Notes under the pieces: generated by a model
What the model saw: only the letters and a program-made list of their open reading frames with translations
The model's database searches: none
Told to the model about the DNA's origin: nothing
Part shown: one piece after another, positions 2,891 through 55,062 of the stretch
Position numbering within the stretch: the first letter of the stretch is position 1
Layout of the letters: each line of letters starts with the position of its first letter
Position numbers and translations under genes: made by a program
Origin: a phage
Length of the DNA stretch: 64,000 nucleotides
Direction: 5' to 3' (one strand)
NCBI GenBank assembly: GCA_012557565.1
Contig: GCA_012557565.1_3926.1

Positions 2891-3091
2891 GTGTTGAAGA
2901 TGAGAGAGAATAACTTTAAAGTAATTGACCACCGTACAGTGGAACTCTCATCTCTTTCCAAAGAAGTTATGATGGAGCGACTTGAAAGGGTCGCTTCAAG
3001 AAGGAAAGAGATTGCAGAAGAAATCCATGAGCTTGATAAGATTGAAAACGGTCTTAAGGCAGAACTACAACGAAGAGGTGTGAATGGCTAA
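2891..3091 (+). CDS. hypothetical protein (coiled-coil-like)
   Basis: 66-aa ORF, overlaps next gene start. Confidence 0.4.
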   Translation: MLKMRENNFKVIDHRTVELSSLSKEVMMERLERVASRRKEIAEEIHELDKIENGLKAELQRRGVNG

Positions 3092-17732: not shown

Positions 17733-18044
17733 ATGGAAAAGATTTATAACACTCGTAAAATTCAGATTTCTATCCTGTGCCAGTTTATGGCTGATAAACA
17801 CAACTCCCACTATTGTGGTACAGGTTTCCTTACTTTAGGTGGTGGCTACATTAGCTTTAAAGAAGCTGTGAAGATGTACAACGAGCACCCTGAAGATGAC
17901 AAAGAGTTGAAACAACTGAAGCTTACTTATGACAAGAAGCGTAAGAAAATTGTATGCTTGAACAACCTTATCAAGCCAACTGAAAACGTTTATGATGCAA
18001 TTGGTGAGGAAGGTTTCTTAAAAGTCTTGAAAATAGCTCAGTAA
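17733..18044 (+). CDS. hypothetical protein
   Basis: 103-aa ORF. Confidence 0.5.
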   Translation: MEKIYNTRKIQISILCQFMADKHNSHYCGTGFLTLGGGYISFKEAVKMYNEHPEDDKELKQLKLTYDKKRKKIVCLNNLIKPTENVYDAIGEEGFLKVLKIAQ

Positions 18045-18057
18045 ACGTATATGATTA

Positions 18058-18084
18058 GGGAACTGTAAAAGGTTCCCTTTTTTA
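18058..18084 (+). terminator. rho-independent terminator
   Basis: GGGAAC-loop-GTTCCC then TTTTTT. Confidence 0.7.
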
Positions 18085-18097: not shown

Positions 18098-18613
18098 ATG
18101 TACCATTCAAATATGAAACGTGCTGCTGCAATGTCTGTTCTTCGTCTTGATTTTGATGAGCGTCAAGAGTTCATCGAGTCACATAAGTATGACCCTTCAA
18201 ATTCTAATCACATGGTGCTTTGGAATCGTGGTAAGTTCCGTGATAGTGCCTTGTTCCAGTACTACCCTCATTACACTATTGACAACCTCTATGAATACTG
18301 CGTTGTCAAGAACACTATTGCAACCCTTAATAAGCTTTGTAGATATTCTGGAAAGAAAGCTTTCACATTAGGCCACCATAAGCCTGTGACAAAAGGTGGA
18401 GAGCACCATTGCTCAAACTGGTTTATCCAGACACAAGAAGATAATCAGAAGCAAGGTGAGAAACTTCCTGAGACTCCTAAGATGACTTGGGAAGAACAGA
18501 AAGCATATCTTAAAAATAATATGCCACCAATGCTTGACAGGAGCTATGCAGTTCTGGCAATATCTCTCTTGTTGAAGTTTAGGGAAGTTTATGAGGCAAC
18601 TTATTATGTCTAG
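18098..18613 (+). CDS. HNH endonuclease-like protein
   Basis: GHHKPVTKGGEHHCSNWFIQTQEDNQKQG fits the HH...GG...N...Q/N HNH pattern. Confidence 0.5.
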   Translation: MYHSNMKRAAAMSVLRLDFDERQEFIESHKYDPSNSNHMVLWNRGKFRDSALFQYYPHYTIDNLYEYCVVKNTIATLNKLCRYSGKKAFTLGHHKPVTKGGEHHCSNWFIQTQEDNQKQGEKLPETPKMTWEEQKAYLKNNMPPMLDRSYAVLAISLLLKFREVYEATYYV

Positions 18614-18884
18614 AGAACAATGGGATATCAAAGAACTTATTAGTGAAGCTGGAAACGGTAGTGAGATGTATATGATACGTGGTCACGTCCCAGATGCACT
18701 TGCTATTGAGATGATTGACCACTACTCCAACGGATTCTATAAAGAATTTGGAGAGCCAAATATTGAACGTACTTGGACAAAACCAGTACCAGATGGAACA
18801 GGTAACTGTTTAGTTATTTATCACACTGTAGACCCAAAGAAATGTAAAACAGCTATGGCTGTAACATTTGTAACTTTTGACTGA
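18591..18884 (+). CDS. hypothetical protein
   Basis: 97-aa ORF; 3' end overlaps the 21-bp repeat at 18870. Confidence 0.45.
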   Translation: MRQLIMSREQWDIKELISEAGNGSEMYMIRGHVPDALAIEMIDHYSNGFYKEFGEPNIERTWTKPVPDGTGNCLVIYHTVDPKKCKTAMAVTFVTFD

Positions 18885-18890
18885 GAGAAA
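18870..18890 (+). repeat. 21-bp direct repeat GTAACTTTTGACTGAGAGAAA, copy 1
   Basis: Identical to 19834-19854; ends 5 nt before ATG 18896. Confidence 0.85.
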
Positions 18891-18895
18891 ATATT

Positions 18896-19345
18896 ATGAT
18901 TTTTTGTAATTTACAAAAACATGTAATAGAAATTTTGTATAAAGAGTTTGGAACAGAGGGGACATTTGATTCTAATGAGGCTATTGATGTACTTCGAAAG
19001 AAAAGCCTATACATTAGAGGTCAATCAATTAATAATGCTCGTGGTTACTTGACAGCATTACGACAAACTGGTGTACTAATGACTGTAGGCCAGATAAAAA
19101 GTAAAGGTAGACTGAGCATTAACCAGTTAAATAAATCCTTCATGGAAAAGCACATCCAGCTATCACCATTATTGGATGAATCACATGAAGAACCTAAAAA
19201 TAAAGATGAGAACAAAATTGTTGACACAGACCCTGACGTAAGGTACTTTATTGAAAGTGCGATGTTTAATACCTTAGAAGAGGCTGTTGAGCATTGCAAA
19301 AAACACATCATTAAGATTAAACGTGCAAAGATTATTTGGGAATAA
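18896..19345 (+). CDS. hypothetical protein, tandem paralog A
   Basis: 149 aa; clear similarity to the next ORF (ILYKEFGTEG.FDSNEA..LR ... KIIWE). Confidence 0.6.
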   Translation: MIFCNLQKHVIEILYKEFGTEGTFDSNEAIDVLRKKSLYIRGQSINNARGYLTALRQTGVLMTVGQIKSKGRLSINQLNKSFMEKHIQLSPLLDESHEEPKNKDENKIVDTDPDVRYFIESAMFNTLEEAVEHCKKHIIKIKRAKIIWE

Positions 19346-19371
19346 TTTACACTAGCTAAAGAGACAAAGTT

Positions 19372-19821
19372 ATGATTAGCTCATTTTATGTAACGCTTGT
19401 TGAGATACTACACGAAAAGTTCGGGACTGATAAGGAATTTGATTCCAATGAAGCGGTGAAAGCTCTAAGAAGTAATTGTGATTATCTTAAGAAAATGCCG
19501 ATAGCTAATTCAAGGTATTACTTATCAGCGTTGCGTAAAGTTGGGGTTCTCGTGACTGTCAAGCATGGTAGCAAAAATGGTGGAGTTCTTTATATCAACC
19601 AGTTAAGCAAACCATTTATGGAAAATGAACCACGACTAGCAAGACTGGTTACTGGTGTAAAAGACCAAGTAAAAACTACAGAAATCCAAATAATACAAGA
19701 ACAAAACCCAAATGTTAAGTACTTTATTGGTGAGATGATGTTTGATACAATGGATGAGGCAGTTGAGTATTGTAAAAAGAACATCATTAAATTAAAAAGA
19801 AAGAAAATTATTTGGGAATAA
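19372..19821 (+). CDS. hypothetical protein, tandem paralog B
   Basis: 149 aa; paralog of 18896-19345, same C-terminal KIIWE. Confidence 0.6.
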   Translation: MISSFYVTLVEILHEKFGTDKEFDSNEAVKALRSNCDYLKKMPIANSRYYLSALRKVGVLVTVKHGSKNGGVLYINQLSKPFMENEPRLARLVTGVKDQVKTTEIQIIQEQNPNVKYFIGEMMFDTMDEAVEYCKKNIIKLKRKKIIWE

Positions 19822-19833
19822 TAATTTACAAAC

Positions 19834-19854
19834 GTAACTTTTGACTGAGAGAAA
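19834..19854 (+). repeat. 21-bp direct repeat GTAACTTTTGACTGAGAGAAA, copy 2
   Basis: Identical to 18870-18890; ends 4 nt before ATG 19859. Confidence 0.85.
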
Positions 19855-19858
19855 TACT

Positions 19859-20740
19859 ATGGAAACTACTATTCAAGTTCTGCTTAATTCAAATTCAAAA
19901 GGTTCACACCAAGAGACCTTCAACATTATTCAGTTCCCTTCAGGGGAAATTGGTGGTAACTTTTCAGAAGACTTAGTAGATTTTGCTAAACATGCTGCTG
20001 GAAAAATTGAAAACGTAATCTTCACGGTACAAGGTTATGACAAAGACACCTTATTTGCATTAGCTTTGGCTAAAGAAGCAATTGACAACCTTATACCTCA
20101 ACAAACAACAATGAAGTCAGTGTTATTTGGTTTCTTACCAAATGCAAGATATGACCGACACATGTTTAAAGGAGATGCAGCAGCATTGAAAGTGTTTGCC
20201 AATCTGGTAAATGCTATGGAATTTGATTCTGTATGTGCTCTGGATGTTCACAGCAACGTAGCAGAAAATTTGTTCAAGTGCTTCTATAATGTTCCACAAA
20301 AAGCCGTTGCATCACACTTTGCAAGTGACCCACGAATTGATTACTTAGTGGCTCCAGATGCAGGTGCAGCTAAGAAGACAGAAGAAGCTGCTAAGGATGT
20401 TGAAAAGCCATATATCACAATGGCTAAGGTACGCAACCTAAAAACTGGTGAAATAACTGGTATGCGAATCCTTGATGATGTAGACTTAACAGGTAAGACT
20501 GTCATGATTCTGGATGATATCTGTGACGGTGGTCGTACCTTCATTGAGGCTGCAAAGTATCTTCGTGAAGCTGGTGCAGAACATGTAGAACTATATGTCA
20601 CTCATGGGATTTTCTCTAAAGGTGTTGAAAATCTTCTTGACAACGGTATTGACCATATCTACACTACAGATTCATTAGGAAGTGCTAAATGGCGTGGACT
20701 TTCACACTTCTCACAAGTGACTGTAGCAAATATTGAATAA
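19859..20740 (+). CDS. ribose-phosphate pyrophosphokinase (PRPP synthetase)-like phosphoribosyltransferase
   Basis: PRPP-binding motif VMILDDICDGGRT; start set to ATG 19859 (GAGAGAAA RBS) rather than track 19841, which lies inside the repeat. Confidence 0.65.
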   Translation: METTIQVLLNSNSKGSHQETFNIIQFPSGEIGGNFSEDLVDFAKHAAGKIENVIFTVQGYDKDTLFALALAKEAIDNLIPQQTTMKSVLFGFLPNARYDRHMFKGDAAALKVFANLVNAMEFDSVCALDVHSNVAENLFKCFYNVPQKAVASHFASDPRIDYLVAPDAGAAKKTEEAAKDVEKPYITMAKVRNLKTGEITGMRILDDVDLTGKTVMILDDICDGGRTFIEAAKYLREAGAEHVELYVTHGIFSKGVENLLDNGIDHIYTTDSLGSAKWRGLSHFSQVTVANIE

Positions 20741-20786: not shown

Positions 20787-22604
20787 ATGACTAAATCAAT
20801 CTATGCAGTGCCAGCAGGACTTAACGCAGATGCTTACAAAGCTGGTCATATCTACCAGTATCCAGATGCTACTCAGTATCTTATGCTGAATTTAACGCCT
20901 CGTGGAGACAAATGGTTTAACTCTCCATTAGAAATTGATGGTGTTGTAGCATTTGGTATTCAGCGTTTTGTAAAAGACTATCTGGTAGACCACTGGAATG
21001 CAACGTTCTTTGAACGTGATAAGAAAGAAGCCATTGACGAAATCTTGGAAATCATGAATGGTGTACTTGGTGCAGATGCCATTGGTCGTCAACATTGGGA
21101 AGAACTTCATGACTTAGGTTATCTGCCTGTTGAAGTCTACTCTGTAGAGGAAGGTACAATTGTCCCTATGCGTGTCCCGATGATTATATTCAAAAACACT
21201 GTAGAGGGCTTCCATTGGGTAGCTGGTTATCTCGAAGATGCTTTCTCTGCTGAAATCTGGAAAGCTTGTACAATTGCAACTATTGCACTACATTACAAAC
21301 GTATTTGTAAGAAGTGGTCAGATTTGACCTGTGATAACGACTTCCATCTTCCTTGGCAGTGTCATGACTTTGCAATGCGTGGTATGTCTGGATTCACAGA
21401 TGATGCGTTTAACGCAGTAGGTCACCTGACAAGTTTTAAAGGTACTGACAGCTTCCCTGCTGTATACACAGCTAAACGTGCATATGGTCAGTTTATGACT
21501 GTAAGTGATATCGGGAACTCTGTACCAGCAACTGAACACTCTGTGATGTGTGCAAACATCTCATGGAATAGTTGTGCCAAAGAAGTAAGTGATTGGCATC
21601 TGCTACAGTCTGACAACTTGTTAGATGCAATGCGTTGGCGTGGTGAGGTAGAAACTTTCCAACGTCTTCTGACAGAAGTCTACCCAACTGGTATTGCAAG
21701 TGTTGTATCAGATACTTACAACTTCTGGAGAACTGTTACACAGATTTTACCAGAGCTACGTAATGTGATTCTGAATCGTGATGGTAAGTTGGTAATCCGT
21801 CCAGACTCTGGAGACCCTGTTCACATTGTTACTGGTTACAAAGCCATTGAGTGGGAAACTGCTAAGTCAATGTTCTACAAGCACATGAAAGAGCTTGCAC
21901 CGAACAATACACATCTGCATGACACAATCTTGAATTGTGAAATGTCTGATATTGGCTTTGGGTTCTCTGCTTGGCTAATCTCTGAAGGTTATGAGATGGT
22001 TGTTGATAAGGAAGATTTTGAATCTGCTGATACAATCAACCTGATTACCGCTCAGAAAACTGGACAGTTTACTGTGAAGCGTATGCTGACAGCAGAGATT
22101 GATGGGGCTATCCACACGCTGTATAACATCTTTGGTGGCACTGTTAACTCCAAAGGGTACAAAGTGCTGGATGAACATATTGGATTAATCTATGGAGATT
22201 CTATCACCCTTGAACGTGCTGATGAGATTCTCAAACGTCTTGCTGAGAAAGGTTTTGCAAGCTCTAACGTGGTGTTTGGTGTTGGTTCATACACTTACCA
22301 GTACCTGACTCGTGACACATTTGCATTCGCTGTTAAGGCTACACTTGCTCAAATGGATGGTGAAGAAATCATGCTGGCAAAAGACCCTAAAACTGACAGT
22401 GGTCTTAAGAAGTCTGCATTTGGTGGTGTAGTCCCAATGTGGGACGGTGATAAACTGGAAGCTGTAGATGGCTTAGGTTTTGAAGAGTTTGAAGGTGTCA
22501 TTGAGAACCCTCAGTGTGCACTGAAGCTTGTATTCTGTGACTCACAACCCTATGGTTATGTTAACCTTCGTGATGTACGAAAAGTTATTGACAACCAGAT
22601 TTAA
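20787..22604 (+). CDS. nadV: nicotinamide phosphoribosyltransferase (NAMPT/NadV family)
   Basis: 605 aa; N-terminal DAYKAGH...Y block and size match the NAMPT family; adjacent to PRPP synthetase-like gene. Confidence 0.75.
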   Translation: MTKSIYAVPAGLNADAYKAGHIYQYPDATQYLMLNLTPRGDKWFNSPLEIDGVVAFGIQRFVKDYLVDHWNATFFERDKKEAIDEILEIMNGVLGADAIGRQHWEELHDLGYLPVEVYSVEEGTIVPMRVPMIIFKNTVEGFHWVAGYLEDAFSAEIWKACTIATIALHYKRICKKWSDLTCDNDFHLPWQCHDFAMRGMSGFTDDAFNAVGHLTSFKGTDSFPAVYTAKRAYGQFMTVSDIGNSVPATEHSVMCANISWNSCAKEVSDWHLLQSDNLLDAMRWRGEVETFQRLLTEVYPTGIASVVSDTYNFWRTVTQILPELRNVILNRDGKLVIRPDSGDPVHIVTGYKAIEWETAKSMFYKHMKELAPNNTHLHDTILNCEMSDIGFGFSAWLISEGYEMVVDKEDFESADTINLITAQKTGQFTVKRMLTAEIDGAIHTLYNIFGGTVNSKGYKVLDEHIGLIYGDSITLERADEILKRLAEKGFASSNVVFGVGSYTYQYLTRDTFAFAVKATLAQMDGEEIMLAKDPKTDSGLKKSAFGGVVPMWDGDKLEAVDGLGFEEFEGVIENPQCALKLVFCDSQPYGYVNLRDVRKVIDNQI

Positions 22605-31320: not shown

Positions 31321-31368
31321 AAGCCCTCCAAAGTTTGAGTTTAAAATCTCAGGTAAGGAGGGCTTTTT
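31321..31368 (+). terminator. hairpin terminator (long loop)
   Basis: AAGCCCTCC ... GGAGGGCTT then TTTTT. Confidence 0.55.
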
Positions 31369-31556
31369 CATTTCAAATTTGTGCAGGTGCAATTGCATAG
31401 AACTCTGGACAGATTTCTTTAGCTGAACTCCAAAGGGAAAATTCATTTTCAATTTGTGCAGGTCTAGACTCCAAAGGGCTTTTTCATTTTCAATCTGTGC
31501 AGATGCAGTTGGACTCCAAAGGGAAAATTCATTTTCAATTTGTGCAGGTAGGTAGC
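31357..31556. repeat. tandem array: terminator-derived copy plus three 41-45 bp direct repeats (units start 31428, 31469, 31514)
   Basis: Unit CTCCAAAGGG(aaaat/ctttt)TCATTTTCAAT(T/C)TGTGCAG(G/A)T; shared TGTGCAGG core also at promoter 27043-27070. Confidence 0.85.
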
Positions 31557-31722
31557 TATAGGAAGCAAGACCCACCATCCCCTCTTACTCCCCTTCCTCC
31601 CAAAAGTCAAGAGAAAAATTTGTAGAGAACTGAAAAATAATTCTTGACTAGTTTTCTGTTTTCTGTTAGTTGCGTACACGCGTTTCATTCACAACTTTCC
31701 AAAAATATTTTTAAAAATTTTG

Positions 31723-31751
31723 TTGACTCTATGAATCCAGTTTTGTAGTAT
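31723..31751 (+). promoter_or_regulatory. sigma70-like promoter opening the small-gene region
   Basis: TTGACT, 17-bp spacer, TAGTAT; followed by GGGGCAAGCAAGCCCC hairpin and the CCTAAACTGGAG leader. Confidence 0.5.
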
Positions 31752-31803
31752 TTGCATCAACGGGGCAAGCAAGCCCCAACAATCCTAAACTGGAGAATCT
31801 AAG

Positions 31804-32010
31804 ATGTTATATCAACGTGAATTAATGATTGTTGACAACAACAAAACAAAGAAACGCCGTTTTTATATGCTAATCTGCGACGTTTGGCAACGTATCTCAG
31901 AAAAGGATTTTGATAAATATGTTGATACGTCAATCAGGTCTGATTGTTACCTGACAAATCACACAAGACAATTTACAAGACATACGGCAATTTATTACTA
32001 TAACGTTTAA
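31804..32010 (+). CDS. hypothetical small protein (cassette gene 1)
   Basis: 68 aa; conserved leader upstream. Confidence 0.5.
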   Translation: MLYQRELMIVDNNKTKKRRFYMLICDVWQRISEKDFDKYVDTSIRSDCYLTNHTRQFTRHTAIYYYNV

Positions 32011-32021
32011 AGGGCTTGACA

Positions 32022-32183
32022 ATGATTAAAGAAGGTTATGTAATAAAGTACAAAGGGCAAGACGGATACACAAAGTTGGGACGTGTTTTCTATCTCTATA
32101 CTTCAGTGATGGGCAATGAGTGTATAGCCCTTACAAATGGCGACAAAATAACCATGAAAGATTTTATAAAAATTATTTCATAA
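32022..32183 (+). CDS. hypothetical small protein (53 aa)
   Basis: Own translation MIKEGYVIKYKGQDGYTKLGRVFYLYTSVMGNECIALTNGDKITMKDFIKIIS; no cassette; below track cutoff. Confidence 0.3.
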   Translation: MIKEGYVIKYKGQDGYTKLGRVFYLYTSVMGNECIALTNGDKITMKDFIKIIS

Positions 32184-32268
32184 AGTACTTTACATGGGGT
32201 TTATAAATTGCTAGTATAAGCCCCAGATAAAGAGCTTTACCAACAATCCTAAACTGGAGAATCTAAAA

Positions 32269-32649
32269 ATGAAATATCGTGCGCCTAAATTTATCAACAA
32301 AGAAAACTTTCGTGATGCTCTGGAAAATTCCATGAATGAGCAGTTCAAAGGTAAAATCATTGTTGTTCACGCTTACAATTTTAAGTATGATGTAAATGGT
32401 AACAAGATAAACCACTACACCGCTACAATGTTAGATGGTACACTCTCAGGAGAAAAGGCTATTATAAATGCACTGGCTGGACGTGGTAAAACGTTAATCC
32501 GTTGCGATAAGCGCCGCTATCAAGGAAGTGCTTATGGTTATGAGGATGCAATCTATCATCTTGATAACATGGGTTACAACGTGGTAAAAGCTGGAGTATC
32601 TCAAATGATTGGCAGTGATGGCTATGTAACAATCTTTGAAATTAACTAA
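32269..32649 (+). CDS. hypothetical protein (cassette gene 2)
   Basis: 126 aa; conserved leader. Confidence 0.55.
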   Translation: MKYRAPKFINKENFRDALENSMNEQFKGKIIVVHAYNFKYDVNGNKINHYTATMLDGTLSGEKAIINALAGRGKTLIRCDKRRYQGSAYGYEDAIYHLDNMGYNVVKAGVSQMIGSDGYVTIFEIN

Positions 32650-32734
32650 TAAAGTACTTTACATGGGGTTTATAGTTCGATAGGATAAGCCCCAGATAAA
32701 GAACTTTATCACTAACCTAAACTGGAGTTTTAAA

Positions 32735-32992
32735 ATGGCTACTATCAAAAATATCGTAATTACTGCAAAGTCCCGTGATGACGCTCGCGCAACTGCTAAA
32801 AAATTAAATGGCAAAGTGGTTGACAACGGAAAAGAATCTGCTGTAAGATGGGGTGTGAAGACAGACAAGAAATTAACCCTTAAACATAGTTCTTACAACA
32901 TGTTTAAAGGTGTGAAAACTATCGGTAACACTAACGTATTCACAAAGCAAGGTTACAAAATGCACTTATCATTAACTGACAATTTAATCTGA
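32735..32992 (+). CDS. hypothetical protein (cassette gene 3)
   Basis: 85 aa; conserved leader variant. Confidence 0.55.
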   Translation: MATIKNIVITAKSRDDARATAKKLNGKVVDNGKESAVRWGVKTDKKLTLKHSSYNMFKGVKTIGNTNVFTKQGYKMHLSLTDNLI

Positions 32993-33083
32993 TAAAGTGC
33001 TTTACATGGGGTTTATAAGTTGTTAGTATAAGCCCCAGATAAAGAGCTTTACTAACCAATAGTCCTAAACTGGAGATTCTAAA

Positions 33084-33596
33084 ATGAAAACCACTGATGC
33101 TATTTTTGAAGTTGTAAAAGAAAAATACACCATTATTTATGCAGCAGTTAATTTCTATGAGCCTTCCCATTGTGTGGATAACTGGCAATTTACTGATGAG
33201 CATAAAGGAGGGATTACAATCAAAGTTAAGAATGCAGAACGTAACAGCTACAAATATGCAATCCCTACGCATTACCCACTTTCACAGCTTGCCAGTGACT
33301 ACGCAAAACAGGGAAGGGATAACCCATCATTGGAAGCTTACAAGAGCTTACAGGATGAGCTAGAAAGGGATTTAGAAGCTAATAGTTATATCTTGTATGC
33401 CTCAGTAATTGACGCTGAAGGGAACACGGTTTTAAATAGTTTTTCTCTTGCGTACTCTTTTGATTGGTGCTATCTTGACGGGGAAGATTTAGAGACACGT
33501 TTAGAAGAGGAAGTGTCGAACTCTGACGGGGAGACTGAAGTGATGGAACGTTTAGAAGCCTTGAAAGATTCAGTTATGAATATCTTTAATATCTAA
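33084..33596 (+). CDS. hypothetical protein (cassette gene 4)
   Basis: 170 aa; conserved leader. Confidence 0.55.
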   Translation: MKTTDAIFEVVKEKYTIIYAAVNFYEPSHCVDNWQFTDEHKGGITIKVKNAERNSYKYAIPTHYPLSQLASDYAKQGRDNPSLEAYKSLQDELERDLEANSYILYASVIDAEGNTVLNSFSLAYSFDWCYLDGEDLETRLEEEVSNSDGETEVMERLEALKDSVMNIFNI

Positions 33597-33679
33597 AAGT
33601 GCTTTACATGGGGTTATCAAGTTGATAAGATAGCCCCAGATAAAGAGCTTTACCAACAATCCTAAACTGGAGAATCAAA

Positions 33680-33976
33680 ATGTTTATTGCCGCAAACGTT
33701 AGAACTAAATTAAGCCAACTATTAAACAACATTCAATTCATTGAATCTATGCGCCGTCAATCTGAAGCTGTAGAGTGGTATCATGGAAAGATTAACAAAA
33801 AAGAAGTAATAGTTTGTGTATGGAACTTTTGTAGAGAATACAAAAAGCCGTTGCTTCAGGTTGATATCTATGATAACACTAACAAGTCATCGATTAAGAC
33901 CACTAGAGATATGATTGATTCATATGAAATTAGTCACACTGGAAAATTATTTCACAAAGGCGTAAACAAATGTTAA
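33680..33976 (+). CDS. hypothetical protein (cassette gene 5)
   Basis: 98 aa; conserved leader. Confidence 0.55.
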   Translation: MFIAANVRTKLSQLLNNIQFIESMRRQSEAVEWYHGKINKKEVIVCVWNFCREYKKPLLQVDIYDNTNKSSIKTTRDMIDSYEISHTGKLFHKGVNKC

Positions 33977-34317
33977 TCACATATACAGCTATTTTTATCT
34001 CTATTGTGGCGCTCTATAAAGCCTTTAAAGCGCATCAGTTAGCTAATAAGGCAATCACAAGGGATTTAAAAATAAACCTTGTAAGGGGCTTTATAGAGCG
34101 TTTAAGCTTGGAACAATTGAAACGTTTAGAGATGAGCTTTCGATTTAAAGCGGAGACATACAGAATCGACAACATTCTAGCAGGTGATTTTAAGCTAATT
34201 AGTGATTATGACATACTGTTAGAAGCAATTCAAGATATAAATTTAAAAGATTATTACATCGTAATAGCTCAAGAAATTAATAAAAAAGAGCTTGCAATGA
34301 AAAACCAAAACAAGTAA
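33970..34317 (+). CDS. hypothetical protein
   Basis: 115 aa; overlaps upstream gene by 7 nt, no own cassette. Confidence 0.5.
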   Translation: MLITYTAIFISIVALYKAFKAHQLANKAITRDLKINLVRGFIERLSLEQLKRLEMSFRFKAETYRIDNILAGDFKLISDYDILLEAIQDINLKDYYIVIAQEINKKELAMKNQNK

Positions 34318-34382
34318 AGTATTTATCAACGGGGAGGGAAAACTCCCCCACTAAGCAAAATTCCTAAACTGGAGAATCTAAA

Positions 34383-34655
34383 ATGTATACAACTAACAAT
34401 GGTCATACCCTTAATGTAACTCTAAAGCACTATGTAGACGGTGTATTGAACTTTGAAGAGTTAAGAGCAGAACAGCATTTATTAGACTGGCAAGTAGCAG
34501 GACTGCAAAAAACTGCTACGGGGTACGGTACAAAAATTCCTACATCTTGGAAAGTACGCTATTTAGGAAAGTTACGAAGAATTTATCAAGATGTTTATAG
34601 CAATAGTGGTGTAAGTTACATTATTGTTAACGGTAAAAAGTTGTATTTAGTCTAA
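34383..34655 (+). CDS. hypothetical protein (cassette gene 6)
   Basis: 90 aa; conserved leader. Confidence 0.55.
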   Translation: MYTTNNGHTLNVTLKHYVDGVLNFEELRAEQHLLDWQVAGLQKTATGYGTKIPTSWKVRYLGKLRRIYQDVYSNSGVSYIIVNGKKLYLV

Positions 34656-34743
34656 TAAATTGCTTTACATGGGGTTATCAGGTTGATAAGATAGCCCCAG
34701 ATAAAGAGATTTATCTGACACTAACCTAAACTGGAGAATCAAA

Positions 34744-35151
34744 ATGACTACTATTAATCATAAAGAAGTTGCAATTCTGAAAGCACGTTTGACTATTAAC
34801 CGTATCAACATTGTCACATCAGCAGCACCAGATGAAACATTGCATAATATTATTGGTAAAATTCAGGGTGTAGTAGTAGATGTAAAACAGATTAAAGAAG
34901 CTTTACAAGACGTAGCAGCGGGGGCTATAATTGACGGCGCACAATATGAAATGCAGGAAATGCTTTCAAAATCTAGAGTAATGAATAAAGAATTAGACTT
35001 GAAGATGTTTCGATTTGCTGTTAAAGTATGGCTATGTGTTGATTTTGATGCTAACTTTGCAATAGCTGATTTCTTTGCTACATGGTTACAGCGTAATTTA
35101 CCATCAGAAAAATTTCGTGAAATTTGCGATGCAATTTATTCAGAAATTTGA
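34744..35151 (+). CDS. hypothetical protein (cassette gene 7)
   Basis: 135 aa; conserved leader. Confidence 0.55.
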   Translation: MTTINHKEVAILKARLTINRINIVTSAAPDETLHNIIGKIQGVVVDVKQIKEALQDVAAGAIIDGAQYEMQEMLSKSRVMNKELDLKMFRFAVKVWLCVDFDANFAIADFFATWLQRNLPSEKFREICDAIYSEI

Positions 35152-35232
35152 TTGACACTGCAAAAACATAGTAGTAAAGTACACATCAACGGGGCAAGCA
35201 AGCCCCAACAATCCTAAACTGGAGAATCTAAA

Positions 35233-35790
35233 ATGAAATGCTTTCATGGTACTACTCAAGAAAACTTTTTAAACCTTATCAATGGCGGTGAAAAACCATC
35301 AGGGGCTTGGAATTGCTCTGATATGGATGGATGTTTTTACGTGTACCCTGTTAATAAGTTCTATGATGTAGAAAGTTTAGACGACGAACAAATCACAAAC
35401 GAAGGTATTAGAAACGCGCTTGATAGCGCAAGCATTACAGCAGCGTATCAAATGAAGTCTCAAAAACTTGTTATCTTGGAACTTGACATTCCAGAGGAAG
35501 ATTTACAAGATGACTGGAGTTGTGAGAATATGAGCGACGTTGCAAGCTTTACAGAATACTTTGATAAGGCATGGATTAAAAAGATTTACACAACTGAATT
35601 TAACGCTATGTTTTCACCTTTCTTTGTTCCTAATCTGAATAACAAAAATTTGGGGTATATGCCTGACGAACTACACAACATTGCAACAATGGTACAGCGT
35701 AGCGATGAAATGAATAATGTGTATATAGATATCTATGAATCTATGCACGAAAACGTAGCAGAAACGGCTTTAAGCGATTTAACAGCATAA
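35233..35790 (+). CDS. hypothetical acidic protein (cassette gene 8)
   Basis: 185 aa; conserved leader. Confidence 0.55.
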   Translation: MKCFHGTTQENFLNLINGGEKPSGAWNCSDMDGCFYVYPVNKFYDVESLDDEQITNEGIRNALDSASITAAYQMKSQKLVILELDIPEEDLQDDWSCENMSDVASFTEYFDKAWIKKIYTTEFNAMFSPFFVPNLNNKNLGYMPDELHNIATMVQRSDEMNNVYIDIYESMHENVAETALSDLTA

Positions 35791-35853
35791 ACTATAGAAT
35801 CGTACCAGTTAACTAGAAAATCCCCGCATAGGGGCTTACAAGAGGCTTAAATA

Positions 35854-36084
35854 ATGCTTACAACAATCTATCTTATCCTGTCTATTTGCAACGGCTCACA
35901 ATGTGACTTCAAAGGATTAGAAGAGTTTACAGGAAGCGAAAACAATGCTATTGTAGCATGTCAGATAGCAAGGCAAGACTATCCCACATCGGATGATATA
36001 CAGTGTTACTATAAATCAGAAGATGAGGAGGGGATTTACTTTGATAGTGTGAATGGTGAATATGAAATTCTTATTGAAAAGTAG
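35854..36084 (+). CDS. hypothetical protein with N-terminal hydrophobic segment
   Basis: 76 aa; own CCCC-gcata-GGGG hairpin plus AAGAGG RBS. Confidence 0.45.
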   Translation: MLTTIYLILSICNGSQCDFKGLEEFTGSENNAIVACQIARQDYPTSDDIQCYYKSEDEEGIYFDSVNGEYEILIEK

Positions 36085-36171
36085 TTGACACTGGAAACGC
36101 AAACAAGTAAAGTATTTATCAACGGGGAGGGAATGACCTTCCCCAACAATCCTAAACTGGAGAATCTAAAA

Positions 36172-36513
36172 ATGGCATACGTAACAATTATCACTGATAA
36201 AGAAAACTCTTCTTGGTCTACACAAGTAAACGACAAAATGACACCTATGCAATGCCTCAAATACTTTGAGCAATGGAACAGGGGGGAAGATGTAAGTCCT
36301 TTCCAAGTAATGCAGGTTGTGCATGTTGACAATGAAGGGAACAAAACTACACTTAACACTGAATACTATGCTACACGTTTTGATACTCGCAAAGAAGCTA
36401 TGCGGGAACTAAGAGAAAAGGGCTATAGTCACATTGCCGCTTTGATTTGGTCTGATTTGCTTAAAAAACAAGCATTAACCTATGTCAAGCCAGAAAAAAT
36501 CTTTATAAGCTAA
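36172..36513 (+). CDS. hypothetical protein (cassette gene 9)
   Basis: Track ORF 36085-36513 trimmed to ATG 36172 directly after the conserved leader. Confidence 0.55.
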   Translation: MAYVTIITDKENSSWSTQVNDKMTPMQCLKYFEQWNRGEDVSPFQVMQVVHVDNEGNKTTLNTEYYATRFDTRKEAMRELREKGYSHIAALIWSDLLKKQALTYVKPEKIFIS

Positions 36514-36711
36514 TCAATGACTTACAAAAATCTTTGAAAAAACTGTTGACAATACCCCTTGACATTGATAGATTTGTTCGAGGGGGTTTATCTAAAGGGA
36601 TTCACTTAAAAGATTCTTTATAGATAAGCTGAAAATTCTCTTGCAATGGGTTATCAAAATCTGTATAGTTTCAATCAAGCAATGAAACAATCCTAAACTG
36701 GAGAATCTAAG

Positions 36712-36849
36712 ATGTTAGAAGTCATTAAAAACCCTATCTTGTGTGGAATGATTGTATCTTTCGTTATTCCTTTTGGTCTTCTGATAGCAAGTGAAATTCA
36801 AGATTATTTCTTCAATAAAAAGCTTGCAATGACCAACAAAAACAAGTAA
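36712..36849 (+). CDS. small membrane protein (45 aa, cassette gene 10)
   Basis: Own translation MLEVIKNPILCGMIVSFVIPFGLLIASEIQDYFFNKKLAMTNKNK; conserved leader; below track cutoff. Confidence 0.45.
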   Translation: MLEVIKNPILCGMIVSFVIPFGLLIASEIQDYFFNKKLAMTNKNK

Positions 36850-36911
36850 AGTACTTATCAACGGGGAAGGATAGGACTTCCCCACTAAATCCTAAACTGG
36901 AGAATCTAAAA

Positions 36912-37439
36912 ATGAATAAGTTTCAAGCTATCAATCATATCCGTTCCAATGCCGTGATGAGCAAGCCAGTAAAAGACACTTTCGAATTTCGCTGCAATGA
37001 CAAGTTGTTTGCAGTCATTACGAAAGGGGAGGATAAAAAATATTATGTACATCGCCAAAACGTTAAGGTAGTAACAGCAGATAACTTTATGCAAGCTGTT
37101 GCAACAATCCTCCCTGATTTTATGGCACTAGTCGCAGAACTTTGTGAACATTGCATCAAATCATCAAAAGAAGAGTTAAACCGCTTTAAAATGGCTTATG
37201 AGCGCTCTATCAAGTCCCATAACATGTATATCATGCCGTTGGCACATGGGATTATGGCGATGGGTACAGGTTGCCACCCTTGCAAGCTTTACGACGTAGA
37301 AAACATCTATCTAAGCGAGACAAAAGACAGTGATTTTAACTTACAGTTAGGGCAAGCATTGAATGATATGATTAAACTACACGAAAAATCTGTAAAAGAT
37401 ATGGAAAAAGAGCTTGACGAAATCATCAGAACTCTATAA
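36912..37439 (+). CDS. hypothetical protein (cassette gene 11)
   Basis: 175 aa; conserved leader. Confidence 0.55.
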   Translation: MNKFQAINHIRSNAVMSKPVKDTFEFRCNDKLFAVITKGEDKKYYVHRQNVKVVTADNFMQAVATILPDFMALVAELCEHCIKSSKEELNRFKMAYERSIKSHNMYIMPLAHGIMAMGTGCHPCKLYDVENIYLSETKDSDFNLQLGQALNDMIKLHEKSVKDMEKELDEIIRTL

Positions 37440-37498
37440 AGTACTCATCAACGGGGAGGGAATGACCTTCCCCAACAATCCTAAACTGGAGACTAGAA

Positions 37499-37762
37499 AT
37501 GAATAACGCAGAAATCACTATCCTGTTACAGATTGGTACTGACAAAGAAGATATCCAACTTTGCAAACGTATAGAAAGTGACTGGTTTAACGGTGAAATC
37601 ATCGCAGAATCTTATGAAGTAGTTGGATTCATGAATGGTGAAATTGTAAGCCATTTCGGTTTAACTAAATCTGAAGCCGTTGCAAAGTATGACGTTTTAT
37701 CTTGTGAGATTCTTACAAAATACAATGAAAAAAGACTTGCAACTTATGCAGCAATGAATTAA
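37499..37762 (+). CDS. hypothetical protein (cassette gene 12)
   Basis: 87 aa; conserved leader. Confidence 0.55.
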   Translation: MNNAEITILLQIGTDKEDIQLCKRIESDWFNGEIIAESYEVVGFMNGEIVSHFGLTKSEAVAKYDVLSCEILTKYNEKRLATYAAMN

Positions 37763-37827
37763 TATTACTTTCAACGGGGAGGGAATGACCTTCCCCACTA
37801 AACAACCCTAAACTGGAGACTTAAAAG

Positions 37828-38004
37828 ATGAATTTTGAACAGCGTATGATTGCAAAATTTGGTGCTAAACGTTGGGAAGAAATGAAAAAAGAGCATGAAG
37901 AAAAGAAAAATGAAGAGATGGTAGTCATCACTGGTACAGACTTGTTAAATCATTCAGTTACTAACTACATCATTTCCGGTAACTCTTACAAGAAAGTGAT
38001 TTAA
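37828..38004 (+). CDS. hypothetical small protein (58 aa, cassette gene 13)
   Basis: Own translation MNFEQRMIAKFGAKRWEEMKKEHEEKKNEEM...; conserved leader. Confidence 0.45.
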   Translation: MNFEQRMIAKFGAKRWEEMKKEHEEKKNEEMVVITGTDLLNHSVTNYIISGNSYKKVI

Positions 38005-38080
38005 AGTATTGACAAGGGGGCTTCAAAGCCCCTACTATAGAGACTCAATAAACAATAATCCTAAACTGGAGATTCTAAAA

Positions 38081-38329
38081 ATGGCAACTATCCGCGCAAC
38101 TGTTAACAATTTTGGTTTTTATGCTCTGGACGTTAAGTTTGACATGGTAAACACTGGAAATGCTTTTGATATGGTTGATATGTGTCTGAAAGCAACTGTG
38201 AAAGAATACAACCCTGCTGAATGGTTCTGGAAAGAAACGAAAGAGGAGATTTTAGCAAATGGCGTTTTATCTTACTATTGGGGCGATTCTCTTATCTCTA
38301 TCTATTACGATAAAGAAGGCCGCAACTAA
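38081..38329 (+). CDS. hypothetical protein (cassette gene 14)
   Basis: Track ORF 38009-38329 trimmed to ATG 38081 after the conserved leader. Confidence 0.55.
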   Translation: MATIRATVNNFGFYALDVKFDMVNTGNAFDMVDMCLKATVKEYNPAEWFWKETKEEILANGVLSYYWGDSLISIYYDKEGRN

Positions 38330-53654: not shown

Positions 53655-53882
53655 ATGTTTAAACTCATAGTTGAAAAACACCCAGAAGATGACAAGCTTG
53701 AAACAGGGAGATTTGGAGATACTTTCTTTATCAGAGTTGGCTGGAAAGCTGACCCATTAGAAGTTAGAAAGATTGTCTACAACTTTGCTGGTTTGGAATT
53801 AAAGCAAGTCATCTTTGAAACAATGTTGCCAGAAAATAAAGATACATGCAATAACGCATATATTCTTACAAGAGTTAGTTAG
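53655..53882 (+). CDS. hypothetical small protein, tandem paralog 2
   Basis: 75 aa MFKLIVEKHPEDDKLE... paralogous to 53383-53610 (shared FETMLPENKDTCNNAYILTRV). Confidence 0.55.
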   Translation: MFKLIVEKHPEDDKLETGRFGDTFFIRVGWKADPLEVRKIVYNFAGLELKQVIFETMLPENKDTCNNAYILTRVS

Positions 53883-53956
53883 GGGATTAGTTTACAAGGT
53901 TAAAACCTCGGTCTTTGAAATCGAAGAAGTTGGTTCAATTCCAACATCCCCCGCCA
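53881..53956 (+). tRNA. tRNA-Gln(TTG)
   Basis: D-stem GTTT/AAAC, anticodon stem TCGGT/ATCGA, loop CTTTGAA, T-arm GTTGG-TTCAATT-CCAAC, CCA; 1:72 mismatch. Confidence 0.7.
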
Positions 53957-53958
53957 AT

Positions 53959-54037
53959 GCTCCATTACTCCAATTGGCAGAGAGGCCAGACTTAAAATCT
54001 GTGTTATGTATCGGTTCGAATCCGATATGGAGTACCA
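53959..54037 (+). tRNA. tRNA-Leu(TAA)-like, short variable arm
   Basis: Acceptor GCTCCAT/ATGGAGT, 3-bp D-stem, loop CTTAAAA, about 7-nt variable region, A73, CCA; 79 nt. Confidence 0.6.
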
Positions 54038-54043
54038 AATATT

Positions 54044-54119
54044 AGCAGTGTAGCATAACTGGCAATGCTCCAGCCTCTGAAGCTGAAAGATTAAGGTTCA
54101 AATCCTTACGCTGCTGCCA
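54044..54119 (+). tRNA. tRNA-Gln(CTG)
   Basis: D-arm GCAT-AACTGGCA-ATGC, loop CTCTGAA, T-arm TAAGG-TTCAAAT-CCTTA, CCA. Confidence 0.7.
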
Positions 54120-54121
54120 CT

Positions 54122-54149
54122 TCTAAGGGTTCTTACGAGAGTCCTTAAA
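54122..54149 (+). other. conserved-loop hairpin (loop GTTCTTACGAGAGT), copy 2
   Basis: Stem TAAGG/CCTTA around the loop seen at 50798-50811. Confidence 0.6.
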
Positions 54150-54150
54150 T

Positions 54151-54227
54151 GTGGCCTTATCATAAATGGATAATGACCCATGCTGTGAACATGGTCTATA
54201 CGGGTTCGATTCCCGTAGGTCACCCCA
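54151..54227 (+). tRNA. tRNA-His(GTG)
   Basis: Acceptor GTGGCCT/AGGTCAC, D-stem TCAT/ATGA, anticodon stem CCATG/CATGG, loop CTGTGAA, C73, CCA; no encoded G-1. Confidence 0.75.
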
Positions 54228-54235
54228 ATTTTAAT

Positions 54236-54311
54236 AGCTCAATTAGCTTATATGGTTAAAGCGCGTGTCTGAAAAACATGAGAACAGGGTTCAAATCCCG
54301 ATGGGCTACCA
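54236..54311 (+). tRNA. tRNA-Phe(GAA), imperfect T-stem
   Basis: Anticodon stem CGTGT/ACATG, loop CTGAAAA, D-stem GCTT/AAGC, CCA; T-stem has mismatches. Confidence 0.55.
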
Positions 54312-54327
54312 ACTTTATAGGTGCATA

Positions 54328-55062
54328 ATGAAAGAGATGACAGAACAAGGTAAAGAGATTTTTAATCTCCTTAAAACTGGTAATGGGTTCTCTAACCCTC
54401 TTATTACTGGTGCAGCAGTTCTTGGTGGTACTGTAGCTGCTTCTCAATCATTAGTGAACTCAATTAGTTCTGTAACAGACCCTGCAACACAACAGATTTT
54501 AGTTGCTGCTGGACTGACAACAGCCTTATTAGGAAGCTTCACAACAAGCCTTGGAAGTACAACTTCAACGACAAGTACACTCACTGAGTATGGACAAAAG
54601 TCTGTAGATGAGTTTTCACAACGTATGCAAGTAGCTAAAGGTTACTCTAACGTTATGGGAGCAGCAGGTGAACAGGTTGGATGTACACCGTTTAGCGGTA
54701 TCATGGGCGTAGCTACCGAGTACGGTAATAAAGCGATGGATTTGATTAATACCTCCATAGACGCTGTAAATAGCGTCCTAAGCGATTTGCAAGATGCAAT
54801 CGACCAAGGACTAGATACAATCTCTGAACTCGCTACACAGGCCGTTACAGCGATTAATGAGGGTATTACAAAGATTACTGCATATGCTAATGAAGTAACT
54901 CAGATGATTGCAGATGAAGCAGCACTGATTGCAGAATACCTGAAAACAAATATTAATGGTTTCCTTGCGAATGTTCTACCAAGCTGGTTTGACGATTCAT
55001 GTAAAACTGGTGTGATTGATACTATCGCAACTCCAGAGATGAAAGAAGCTCTGAACAAATAA
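54328..55062 (+). CDS. hypothetical Thr/Ser/Ala-rich protein inside the tRNA cluster
   Basis: Track ORF 54265-55062 overlaps tRNA-Phe; trimmed to ATG 54328 (AGGTG 4 nt upstream). Confidence 0.5.
   Translation: MKEMTEQGKEIFNLLKTGNGFSNPLITGAAVLGGTVAASQSLVNSISSVTDPATQQILVAAGLTTALLGSFTTSLGSTTSTTSTLTEYGQKSVDEFSQRMQVAKGYSNVMGAAGEQVGCTPFSGIMGVATEYGNKAMDLINTSIDAVNSVLSDLQDAIDQGLDTISELATQAVTAINEGITKITAYANEVTQMIADEAALIAEYLKTNINGFLANVLPSWFDDSCKTGVIDTIATPEMKEALNK

Follow-up and report, generated by a model that had tools for sequence, protein, structure and literature searches.

A two-gene module bracketed by a duplicated gene junction upstream of the PRPP synthetase gene in a Felix O1-like phage

Genes and repeats at the locus

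The window, by which we mean the whole 64-kb stretch of DNA analysed, belongs to a Mooglevirus-like phage of the subfamily Ounavirinae (Felix O1 group). Two small paralogous genes, referred to below as the cassette or unit, lie between a 92-aa gene (the upstream gene) and a PRPP synthetase-like gene (prs), and each side of the pair carries a copy of a short direct repeat (R1 and R2). The features of the locus are:

18098..18613, + strand: 171-aa conserved gene (phrog_3500) with weak HNH similarity
18606..18884, + strand: upstream 92-aa gene, Mordin gp9 homolog (phrog_4726, E=3.5e-57)
18861..18899, + strand: repeat copy 1 (R1), extended form GTAACATTTGTAACTTTTGACTGAGAGAAAATATTATGA, exact core 18870-18890
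18882-18884, + strand: TGA stop within R1; besides this 3' end of the upstream gene, R1 holds a ribosome-binding site (GAGAG) and the start of paralog A (ATGA)
18896..19345, + strand: paralog A, 149 aa (phrog_29478)
19346..19371, + strand: intergenic spacer between A and B, in which a separate ribosome-binding site, AAAGAGACAAAGTT, precedes the ATG of paralog B
19372..19821, + strand: paralog B, 149 aa (phrog_29478)
19825..19862, + strand: repeat copy 2 (R2), extended form TTTACAAACGTAACTTTTGACTGAGAGAAATACTATGG, exact core 19834-19854
19859..20740, + strand: PRPP synthetase-like gene (prs; ribose-phosphate pyrophosphokinase), Pfam PF00156 (Pribosyltran) and PF14572 (Pribosyl_synth), phrog_619 E=1.3e-98
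20787..22604, + strand: nicotinamide phosphoribosyltransferase gene (NadV-like), Pfam NAPRTase and NAMPT_N, the next gene in the same operon-like block

Our promoter and terminator scan placed a promoter-like site and a terminator-like hairpin (18027-18078) ahead of the 171-aa gene, whose HNH similarity comprises matches to phrog_2214 HNH (E=2e-5) and IscB HNH (E=6e-4). As the first gene to follow them, it probably opens the transcription unit that includes the cassette; a terminator is annotated at the equivalent place in the relatives Mordin and Moogle. Annotations of Mordin, KPS64 and Moogle show the upstream gene as a CDS of 279 nt, and the identity of prs is likewise backed by annotations in relatives. 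Paralogs A and B are 48% identical to each other (BLASTP E=3e-36).

Consensus scans of the cassette returned 10 promoter-like sites against 10.0 expected and no terminator-like site on the + strand within it or at its ends, and the Mordin annotation also places no terminator there. Between 17500 and 21000, no RNA family was matched in Rfam at E<=1, and hence no riboswitch or known leader RNA. The G+C content of the cassette is 33.2% compared to a window mean of 38.7% (sd 2.2), placing it in the lowest 0.24% of 964-nt windows, a composition that would fit a foreign origin at some past time.

The repeat corresponds to a gene junction

An earlier note on this DNA had described exact 21-bp direct repeats that end 4-5 nt before two start codons and enclose two 149-aa paralogs, a description borne out in every element. 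The 21-mer GTAACTTTTGACTGAGAGAAA occurs exactly twice in the window, on the + strand, and its copies end 5 nt before the ATG of paralog A (18896) and 4 nt before that of prs (19859). No further copy was found in the 64 kb even when 3 mismatches were allowed, and 100 dinucleotide shuffles yielded none, for a chance expectation of 0.

Around the exact 21-nt core extends an imperfect repeat of ~39 nt (18861-18899 vs 19825-19862), in which 31 of 39 positions match, and which is exact over 37 nt in Mordin and over 38 nt in Henu11. This extended repeat contains the last seven codons and the stop of the upstream gene, a ribosome-binding site and the ATGA with which both paralog A and prs begin; in copy 1, the first 15 nt of the 21-mer still belong to the upstream gene, as its last four codons and TGA stop. 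Judged from a junction table of 27 genomes, R1 is the ancestral junction between the upstream gene and prs. R2 combines the prs ribosome-binding site and ATG with a non-coding fossil of the upstream gene 3' end (ACAAAC allele) and its stop, and an undecayed form of it, AGTAACAAACGTAACTTTTGACTGAGAGAAATATTATGA, occupies the R2 position in KMM2 and Henu11. Since the last codons and stop of the upstream gene recur in R2, where they are non-coding, the repeat is a duplicated junction rather than a conserved ribosome-binding site, and a real junction duplication accompanied insertion. The earlier proposal of a cassette inserted with duplication of the prs leader can therefore be kept, backed by this fossil and by the empty sites described below, except that the duplicated part is larger than the leader and extends from the seventh-last codon to the ATGA.

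It could be argued that there was no event at all, and that the 21-mers are a conserved translational-coupling or ribosome-binding motif next to paralogs that are ordinary residents, given that both copies stand directly before start codons and share a GAGAG Shine-Dalgarno-like core. This explanation is refuted by the empty sites and by the gene fragment in R2: of the 21 nt, 15 derive from the upstream gene (coding sequence plus stop) and recur at a non-coding place, relatives lack precisely the block between the copies, chance accounts for none of the copies, and the 9-nt leader core TGAGAGAAA is absent elsewhere in the window and is thus no generic ribosome-binding motif.

At the cassette termini we found no terminal inverted repeats, only AT-rich inverted matches with 73-91% complementarity, and no G+C stem-loop was found in the repeat. 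The A-B spacer of the window genome holds no clear repeat remnant. The label of a moron-style insertion, one of two routes the earlier note had considered, does not hold, as in the consensus scans neither promoters nor terminators of the cassette rise above chance, and it relies on the ribosome-binding site and start codon supplied by the duplication.

Occupied and empty sites in related phages

Relatives were drawn from GenBank phage records and Logan/ENA contigs and compared at this junction, as the earlier note had suggested; far from all sharing the arrangement, most have a single repeat copy before prs and lack the paralogs. The upstream gene is present in ~231 phage records and the A/B family in only 16, so that ~93% of genomes are empty, and the spacing from the upstream gene to prs is 8-13 nt in 15 of the 27 compared loci. 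Empty sites, including those of KPS64, Moogle, Michonne, Sf13, Sf14, KMM4, garuso and H12, have exactly one repeat copy. Scans of IMG/VR returned nothing for paralog A and, for the upstream gene, five loci, most of which seem to repeat isolates already sequenced.

Two pairs of close relatives differ in occupancy. Mordin (occupied) and Michonne (empty) are separated by four substitutions in the ~22 kb around the site (3 over the 18.4 kb on the left and 1 over the 3.56 kb on the right) and by a block of exactly 965 nt, with 0 substitutions within 3.9 kb to the left or 731 nt to the right of the repeats and no flanking tract of converted markers. KMM2 (occupied) and KMM4 (empty) show 1 difference in the 800 nt to the left. 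Occupied genomes are non-monophyletic in the trees of both flanks.

The number of units at this one locus varies between 0, 1 and 2. Most genomes have 0; the window, Mordin, KMM2, Henu11, Pr103Blw and the Logan contig L029 have 1; and finno, ESCO49/50, Seyj1-1 and others have 2. Among Felixounaviruses, the array reads [A][B] in Pr103Blw, [g1][g2] in L029 and [g1][g2][A][g4] in finno-type genomes, and some of these phages thus have a related two-gene unit, or two of them, at this site, every unit accompanied by a junction copy that has decayed. In finno, the direct repeat is 74-76% identical, the segment that was duplicated begins 12 nt upstream of the stop codon of the upstream gene, and g3 is preceded by a decayed copy of the repeat.

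Divergence of the unit and its flanks

Among occupied genomes, the cassette has diverged about as much as its surroundings. The cassettes of KMM2 and Mordin differ by ~3.1% and their left flanks by ~2.5%, and the window differs from KMM2 by ~7% in cassette and left flank alike. Between genera, protein identity of the window to the Felixounavirus Pr103Blw is 77% for A, 58% for B, 74% for prs and 62% for the upstream gene. The prs genes of KMM2 and KMM4 contain apparent frameshifts, which make dN/dS values involving KMM2 prs meaningless, and these were ignored. For the paralogs, omega is 0.05-0.26 (B alone 0.20-0.26); A and B are under purifying selection, with B evolving faster than A, as the identities to the Felixounavirus types also reflect. 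Selection on A and B together with their co-divergence with the flanks indicates that the module is old, and cassette divergence that tracks the flanks favours long residence and secondary loss.

The reverse history would be a recent gain, in which the lineage of the window, and separately Mordin and KMM2, took the unit from a co-infecting relative, either as an excised circle [R-A-B] entering a single junction copy by a single crossover or through a double crossover confined to the repeats, the empty sites being ancestral in most lineages. The repeat alleles speak partly for it: in the window and KMM2, R1 has the resident allele ACATTT and R2 a different one, ACAAAC, as predicted for integration of a circle with the crossover inside the repeat. 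Similarly, a divergent patch in the upstream gene between KMM2 and Henu11 ends inside R1, while their cassettes are 99.4% identical. The preponderance of empty genomes, the atypically low G+C content and the mini-circle precedent in T4-type phages (PMC2839356) point the same way. Independent imports, however, would not make cassette divergence equal left-flank divergence among occupied genomes, and R2 of Mordin has the resident, not the donor, allele. The flanks of Mordin and Michonne are identical up to the repeats, which would require both crossovers to fall inside 37 nt, and the low divergence between KMM2 and Henu11 runs ~1.5 kb past R2, leaving only one boundary at a repeat. On balance, we regard recent gain as possible but rather unlikely.

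One observation on the repeats tells against the reading of an old module. In Mordin and Henu11, both repeat copies are identical and each matches the upstream-gene allele of its own genome, which requires gene conversion or recent re-formation and would not fit an old repeat subject to decay only.

The paralogous proteins

No significant sequence match to A, B or the upstream gene was found in Pfam, NCBIfam or the PDB (at E<=1 in the PDB for A and B). The predicted structures of the proteins have a confident winged-helix N-terminal domain (residues 1-95 in paralog A) with the H1-S1-H2-H3-S2-wing-S3 topology of winged-helix proteins, and a C-terminal domain modelled at low confidence; paralog A has a conserved C-terminal motif of ~40 aa, YFI..MF.T..EAVEHCKK.IIK.KR.KIIWE. 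Sequence identity to MarR-, SarX- and PadR-type and other winged-helix domains is only 8-15%, no Pfam or NCBIfam match above threshold places A and B in a curated family such as MarR or PadR, and the C-terminal 40-residue motif has no recognised counterpart among winged-helix proteins. Fold-search matches include MukF, Scc1 and NLR, and in BFVD a fold search recovered nothing beyond the family itself and small phage wHTH proteins of a generic kind. The predicted fold suggests that A and B may bind DNA, and they probably work as a pair; winged-helix domains can also mediate protein contacts, as in the MukF, Scc1 and NLR matches.

The A/B family is tiny and restricted to these phages, with only four representatives at 50% identity among 1.84 billion. 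A profile search of these representatives recovered the family itself, including a short subfamily, and one distant C-terminal match, P0013, which lies on an unrelated contig with rIIB, a different context that gives no functional clue. Two further candidates were set aside. A Transposase_29 match (E=0.005) scored 15.5 bits against a cut-off of 27, and homology between the upstream gene and paralog A, suspected from a common 18-nt stretch (YKEFG motif, L001), was rejected at an hhalign probability of 1.7%.

These protein data bear on whether the unit is an actively mobile element, be it a moron, a homing-endonuclease cassette or a transposon-like element, with its own machinery and a target-site duplication. 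Direct repeats around the unit, its absence in relatives and its atypical G+C content are what such an element would leave, homing endonuclease genes are common indels nearby (for example, in the prs-nadV gap of Moogle and ESCO50), and a weakly HNH-like gene lies two genes upstream. Yet neither A nor B has a nuclease, transposase or integrase signature in Pfam, PHROGs or NCBIfam, which, with the winged-helix fold of the N-terminal domain, also removes the homing-style route of the earlier note. Terminal inverted repeats, an own promoter and a terminator are likewise missing, and 37-39 nt far exceeds typical target-site duplications. Moreover, no repeat flanks the HNH insertion that Moogle carries between prs and nadV, so homing in these phages leaves no such signature. 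An element of this kind is thus very improbable. The Moogle insertion was also our ground for discarding junction duplication as a general signature of insertion in this group.

Discussion

We propose, with a probability of roughly 60%, that A and B form an old, dispensable two-gene module residing in a duplicated junction, which is deleted or duplicated by recombination between the repeats. The module sits between the conserved 92-aa gene and the PRPP synthetase gene and is bracketed by two copies of a junction in which the upstream gene's final seven codons and its stop are joined to the Shine-Dalgarno sequence and ATGA. With the junction duplicated, the first inserted gene and the displaced prs would keep the same translation-initiation context, such that the module could do without a promoter and a terminator. 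Its direct repeats of 37-39 nt, decayed in the window to a 21-nt exact core, would be substrates for phage homologous recombination. Exchange between them would precisely remove the 965-nt unit and restore the ancestral junction, the state of most relatives, and the reciprocal unequal exchange would duplicate the unit, which could account for the four-gene arrays of some Felixounaviruses. The unit could also return, either by the deletion running in reverse or when co-infecting phages cross over inside the repeats.

Recombination between the repeats is the mechanism that we infer from the comparison of genomes, and most empty sites are probably losses that occurred through it. Because the module is old and related units exist in Felixounavirus, several losses account for its patchy distribution better than several insertions would. 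The direction of any single event is a matter of interpretation, and the difference between Mordin and Michonne could equally be a precise repeat-mediated insertion.

A more far-reaching idea is that the unit is a mobile 'translational cassette' that leaves as a mini-circle and re-enters at the junction of upstream gene and prs in other Ounavirinae, with A/B or the HNH-like protein binding or cutting the junction and thereby stimulating exchange. Such a system would resemble an integron, but work at a ribosome-binding site and without a recombinase. Although we consider it quite improbable, it is compatible with the repeat alleles of the window and KMM2 and with the boundary of the Henu11 patch in R1.

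The locus can be compared with several known systems. Morons, reportedly defined by Juhala et al. in 2000 as transcription units made autonomous by a promoter and a terminator of their own, are known mainly from temperate phages. Like them, the unit is an extra, dispensable block of atypical composition between genes that are adjacent in relatives; unlike them, it appears to lack a promoter and terminator and to be co-transcribed with its neighbours, and it is flanked by a duplicated junction. In the summary of PMC2839356, morons are extra genes between genes adjacent in related phages.

A closer parallel is found in T4-type phages, which excise and shuffle ORFan cassettes between short flanking repeats termed PeSLs (promoter-early stem-loop; Arbiol et al. 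2010, PMC2839356), also treated by Comeau et al. 2014 (PMC4122927). There, as here, small genes lie between two copies of a short, conserved intergenic element, and a close relative has a single copy and no gene. In the mechanism proposed and partly demonstrated for PeSLs, recombination between the flanking copies causes deletion and releases a mini-circle able to reintegrate; as such events are targeted to intergenic junctions, neighbouring genes stay undisrupted. PeSLs differ in being ~100 nt long, in occurring many times per genome, dispersed over hyperplastic regions, and in carrying a sigma-70 promoter, a stem-loop terminator and a Shine-Dalgarno sequence that provide transcriptional insulation. 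The repeat described here is a 37-39-nt duplicate of one specific junction, found at this site only, with neither promoter nor stem-loop, and would confer translational rather than transcriptional autonomy. Separately, the same window contains a PeSL-like repeat family at 31.7-38.1 kb.

For recombination in T4, small patches of homology are sufficient (Singer et al. 1982, cited by PMC2839356). In virulent phages, recombination between short direct repeats gives precise deletions that leave one copy and reciprocal tandem duplications, and both outcomes are seen at this locus. Although the mechanism is generic, the repeats in this case are functional initiation regions, and both recombination products would therefore remain fully expressed. 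We found nothing specific on this indel in the literature on Mooglevirus and Felixounavirus.

As an instance of phages probably gaining, losing and duplicating accessory genes through short-repeat recombination, the locus is ordinary but unusually clear; it does not overturn current ideas, and its value is illustrative rather than conceptual. It illustrates how accessory genes may come and go, or multiply, within an operon of a virulent phage while the neighbours remain unharmed. Because the whole initiation region is duplicated, the newcomer and the gene it displaces would both still be translated, and the same duplication would later serve as the homology for removing or doubling the block. 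The Mordin/Michonne pair together with the series of 0, 1 and 2 units offers a ready system for measuring short-repeat recombination in Felix O1-like phages, which are used for typing and therapy of Salmonella, Shigella and E. coli. Finally, the locus points to an always-paired family of winged-helix proteins within the NAD+/PRPP salvage operon of these phages.

Gene order and the repeat at the gp9-prs junction

The closest relatives of the 3-kb region around the site belong to the genus Mooglevirus (Ounavirinae), with Citrobacter phage BSwM KMM2 (92.3%), Mordin (91.5%) and Shigella phage Henu11 (90.8%) as the best matches and weaker matches to Felixounavirus. Local gene order runs from nrdG through several small ORFs to a 171-aa gene, gp9, the paralogs A and B, the PRPP synthetase-like gene prs and a NadV-like gene.

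Genes around the site in the window
18098-18613, 171-aa gene with weak HNH similarity
18606-18884, gp9, 92 aa, phrog_4726 (named after the Mordin homolog)
18896-19345, paralog A, 149 aa
19372-19821, paralog B, 149 aa
19859-20740, prs, PRPP synthetase-like
20787-22604, NadV-like nicotinamide phosphoribosyltransferase

The 171-aa gene, two genes upstream of the cassette and kept in all relatives, matches phrog_2214 (HNH) at E=2e-5 and the NCBIfam IscB HNH region at E=6e-4, contains the motif HHKPVTKGGEHH...N, and has no Pfam match at E<=0.1. Its product might be an active nuclease, in which case it could turn the surrounding region into a hotspot of recombination. The prs gene is split into two annotated ORFs in KMM2 (L007 3967-4847) and KMM4 (L022 2601-3274), both Baltic Sea isolates; a sequencing error or a true pseudogene could account for this apparent frameshift.

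The 21-mer GTAACTTTTGACTGAGAGAAA occurs exactly at 18870-18890 and 19834-19854, with no further site in the window even when three mismatches are allowed (chance expectation zero), and flanks two paralogs that are 48% identical. The earlier note had described these repeats and 149-aa proteins correctly, and its cassette between duplicated leader copies is real; its term 'leader' was too narrow, as the duplicated stretch also takes in part of the upstream gene and the start codon. The opening 15 nt of copy 1 are the final four codons of gp9 and its TGA stop, and around the 21-mer a longer repeat can be aligned between 18861-18899 and 19825-19862 (31/39 positions match), of which the 21-mer is the surviving core. 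This longer repeat, R, is intact in Mordin (TAACATTTGTAACTTTTGACTGAGAGAAATATTATGA twice, exact over 37 nt) and Henu11 ((A)GTAACAAACGTAACTTTTGACTGAGAGAAATATTATGA twice), from which its span could be read: the last seven codons of gp9, the stop, a GAGAG Shine-Dalgarno sequence and the ATGA common to the starts of A (ATGATTTTTT) and prs (ATGAAAACT). Within the 64 kb the leader core TGAGAGAAA has no other occurrence, which sets R apart from a generic ribosome-binding motif.

Across Ounavirinae, the ribosome-binding region of the gp9-prs leader is a (GA)n tract of ~2 to 9 units (for example gagagagagagagagagaaaact in L031, ~2985-3002; also L018, L017 and window 18883-18888), which may be slippage-prone and could tune translation. 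An imperfect hairpin at 18892-18928 (18-nt arms, 78% complementary, 1-nt loop) spans the A start codon; it could affect initiation, or may reflect chance in AT-rich sequence.

The gene pair is a presence/absence polymorphism bounded by R

We compared 27 loci, mostly from GenBank phage records. At 15 of these, prs starts 8-13 nt after gp9, with one R and without the paralogs, which is the arrangement that the earlier note had predicted for relatives. Using tblastn, gp9 homologs were found in 231 phage records, versus 16 for the A/B family; together with the single-R empty sites, this identifies the block between the repeats as a presence/absence polymorphism bounded exactly by R. The sharpest case is that of Mordin (occupied) and Michonne (empty), assigned to the same species by ICTV, which differ by 3 substitutions in 18.4 kb to the left of the site and 1 in 3.56 kb to the right, the nearest 3.9 kb on the left and 731 nt on the right being free of substitutions; the difference at the site is exactly the 965-nt unit. 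Over the 800 nt to the left, occupied KMM2 and empty KMM4 are identical but for one position, and neighbour-joining trees of either flank intermix occupied and empty genomes. Elsewhere, Mordin and Michonne (L036/L037 1-2500) show 111 differences, all in ~2.5 kb of the family-A DNA polymerase gene, a recombinant patch in otherwise nearly identical genomes.

In Felixounavirus, 12 records contain family members, every one between gp9 and prs. An A-type gene followed by a B-type gene is found in Pr103Blw and in 24 Logan/ENA contigs with a gene for its B-type protein (inspected at six loci), g1 followed by g2 in one Logan contig (L029), and the four-gene array g1, g2, A-type, g4 in finno-type phages. 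The two halves of the finno array form a direct repeat, 74-76% identical from 12 nt before the gp9 stop; g3 and g1 both begin ATGATTTTTTGCAA, and a decayed R precedes g3 (19/26 positions match, shuffle p ~0.01). At every occupied site a remnant of R precedes prs; at one extreme it is 38 exact nt, at the other a bare ribosome-binding site, with forms like TTTTATTGAGAGAGAG between. Loci thus carry 0, 1 or 2 units, each R-bounded: the three outcomes that recombination between direct repeats, equal or unequal, is expected to yield. Each unit is a pair, with no family gene occurring singly among the genomes examined. In Salmonella phage fBSPA4 (L010 2040-2140), the four-gene array is kept directly after the 171-aa gene homolog, and gp9 is gone but for its ~last 30 nt.

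A small protein family under purifying selection

The A/B family (phrog_29478) is very small: among 5.8 billion proteins it forms eleven clusters at 90% identity, and among 1.84 billion it has four representatives at 50% identity. Wherever the genomic context of a family gene was inspected, the gene lay at the gp9-prs locus. All hits are family members except one distant relative, P0013 (125 aa; L028 4001-4378, Logan SRR31815898 contig), which has the C-terminal motif alone in common with A/B (FFVGEIWF..EAIEHCRQHIIQKKTRKIVWE) and is encoded in a different phage context, on an unrelated contig, downstream of rIIB, an SLT-domain gene and a weakly HAD/PNKP-like gene; this motif may be an independent module. 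Purifying selection acts on A and B (omega 0.05-0.26), both of them real genes. They are predicted to be small DNA-binding (or possibly protein-binding) winged-helix proteins forming a heteromeric pair, and could serve as an accessory regulator or host-interaction factor tied to the NAD+/PRPP salvage operon.

A consensus scan of the cassette, ends included, gave no promoter or terminator signal beyond the chance level; the closest such features, a hairpin resembling a terminator and a site resembling a promoter, precede the 171-aa gene at 18027-18078. Transcription of A and B is therefore most likely shared with prs and nadV, and the duplicated leader most likely serves their translation. Without transcriptional signals of its own, the cassette is not a moron in the defined sense, one of two labels proposed in the earlier note. 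The other, homing, fails for want of a nuclease signature in A/B; with no transposase or integrase signatures in the proteins and no terminal inverted repeats on the cassette, a transposon is excluded as well. A search of Rfam gave no match for the region. Moogle does carry a genuine HNH homing gene between prs and nadV (L003 3286-3777), as do phiSUSP1 and ESCO50 (L009 4755-5246), with no direct repeat on either side; present in some genomes of both genera, this is a second indel in the operon, mechanistically different from the cassette.

Probable loss and possible re-insertion of the unit

Divergence of the cassette tracks that of its flanks. KMM2 and Mordin differ at 30 of 976 nt in the cassette and at ~25 per kb in the left flank, and the window and KMM2 diverge by ~7% in both. 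Between genera, protein identities of the window and Felixounavirus Pr103Blw are 77% for A, 58% for B, 74% for prs and 62% for gp9. Such divergence is expected if the module had resided at the site since before the split of the two genera and had then undergone many losses; imports that were independent and recent should not reproduce the divergence of the flanks. To explain the Mordin/Michonne difference by insertion, two crossovers would have to be placed within 37 nt, since the flanks show no difference up to R; for a deletion, a single R-by-R exchange would do. Taken together, these two observations favour loss as the common event, to which we assign a probability of roughly 0.6; the module is ancient, and has probably been lost more often than gained.

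Some features also fit R-mediated re-insertion of the unit. The two copies differ in allele in the window and KMM2: copy 1 has that of the resident gp9, ACATTT, and copy 2 has ACAAAC, which Felixounavirus and Henu11 also show. This is what would be expected if an excised circle had integrated or a crossover had fallen inside R. Between KMM2 and Henu11, a strongly divergent gp9 patch stops at -15, inside copy 1, and the cassettes share 99.4% identity. Mordin and Henu11 each have two exactly identical copies, of their own allele type, an identity that implies recent re-formation or gene conversion. At 33.2% GC, the cassette ranks among the lowest 0.24% of windows of its size, which would fit an origin that was ultimately foreign. 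The Henu11 patch (L008), 15-400 nt upstream of the gp9 stop, is a mosaic ~20% divergent from KMM2, with both sides >98% identical.

Other repeats in the window and comparison with PeSL elements

A 43-nt repeat (..CTCCAAAGGG....TTCATTTTCAATTTGTGCAGGT) occurs four times at 31346-31549, spaced 41-75 nt apart. Twenty-five tRNA genes are clustered on the + strand at 50010-55238, where an imperfect 272-nt tandem duplication (53330-53873, 74% identical) overlaps the 3' half of tRNA-Arg(acg) (53288-53364) and stops just before tRNA-Gln(ttg) (53881). At 31700-38100, 13 copies of the conserved leader AACAATCCTAAACTGGAGAATCTAAAATG each lie directly 5' of a small ORF, most preceded by a G+C stem-loop (e.g. 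GGGGAGGGAATGACCTTCCCC, ~36124-36144) and TTGACA / TAAAGT promoter-like boxes; these make up a PeSL-like family of cassettes that combine promoter, stem-loop and SD, in an apparently early region.

The nearest described analogue of the gp9-prs cassette is PeSL-mediated shuffling in T4-type phages, where ORFans lie between two copies of a conserved promoter-stem-loop-SD element and are deleted in close relatives, one element remaining, and where excised mini-circles have been detected (PMC2839356). In both systems ORFans are bounded by repeats, a single repeat marks the empty site, and events fall at a harmless intergenic position. Unlike PeSL, R is a one-off duplication of a specific gene junction, without promoter or stem-loop, and provides translational rather than transcriptional autonomy. 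The locus is less a surprise than a tidy, experimentally tractable illustration.
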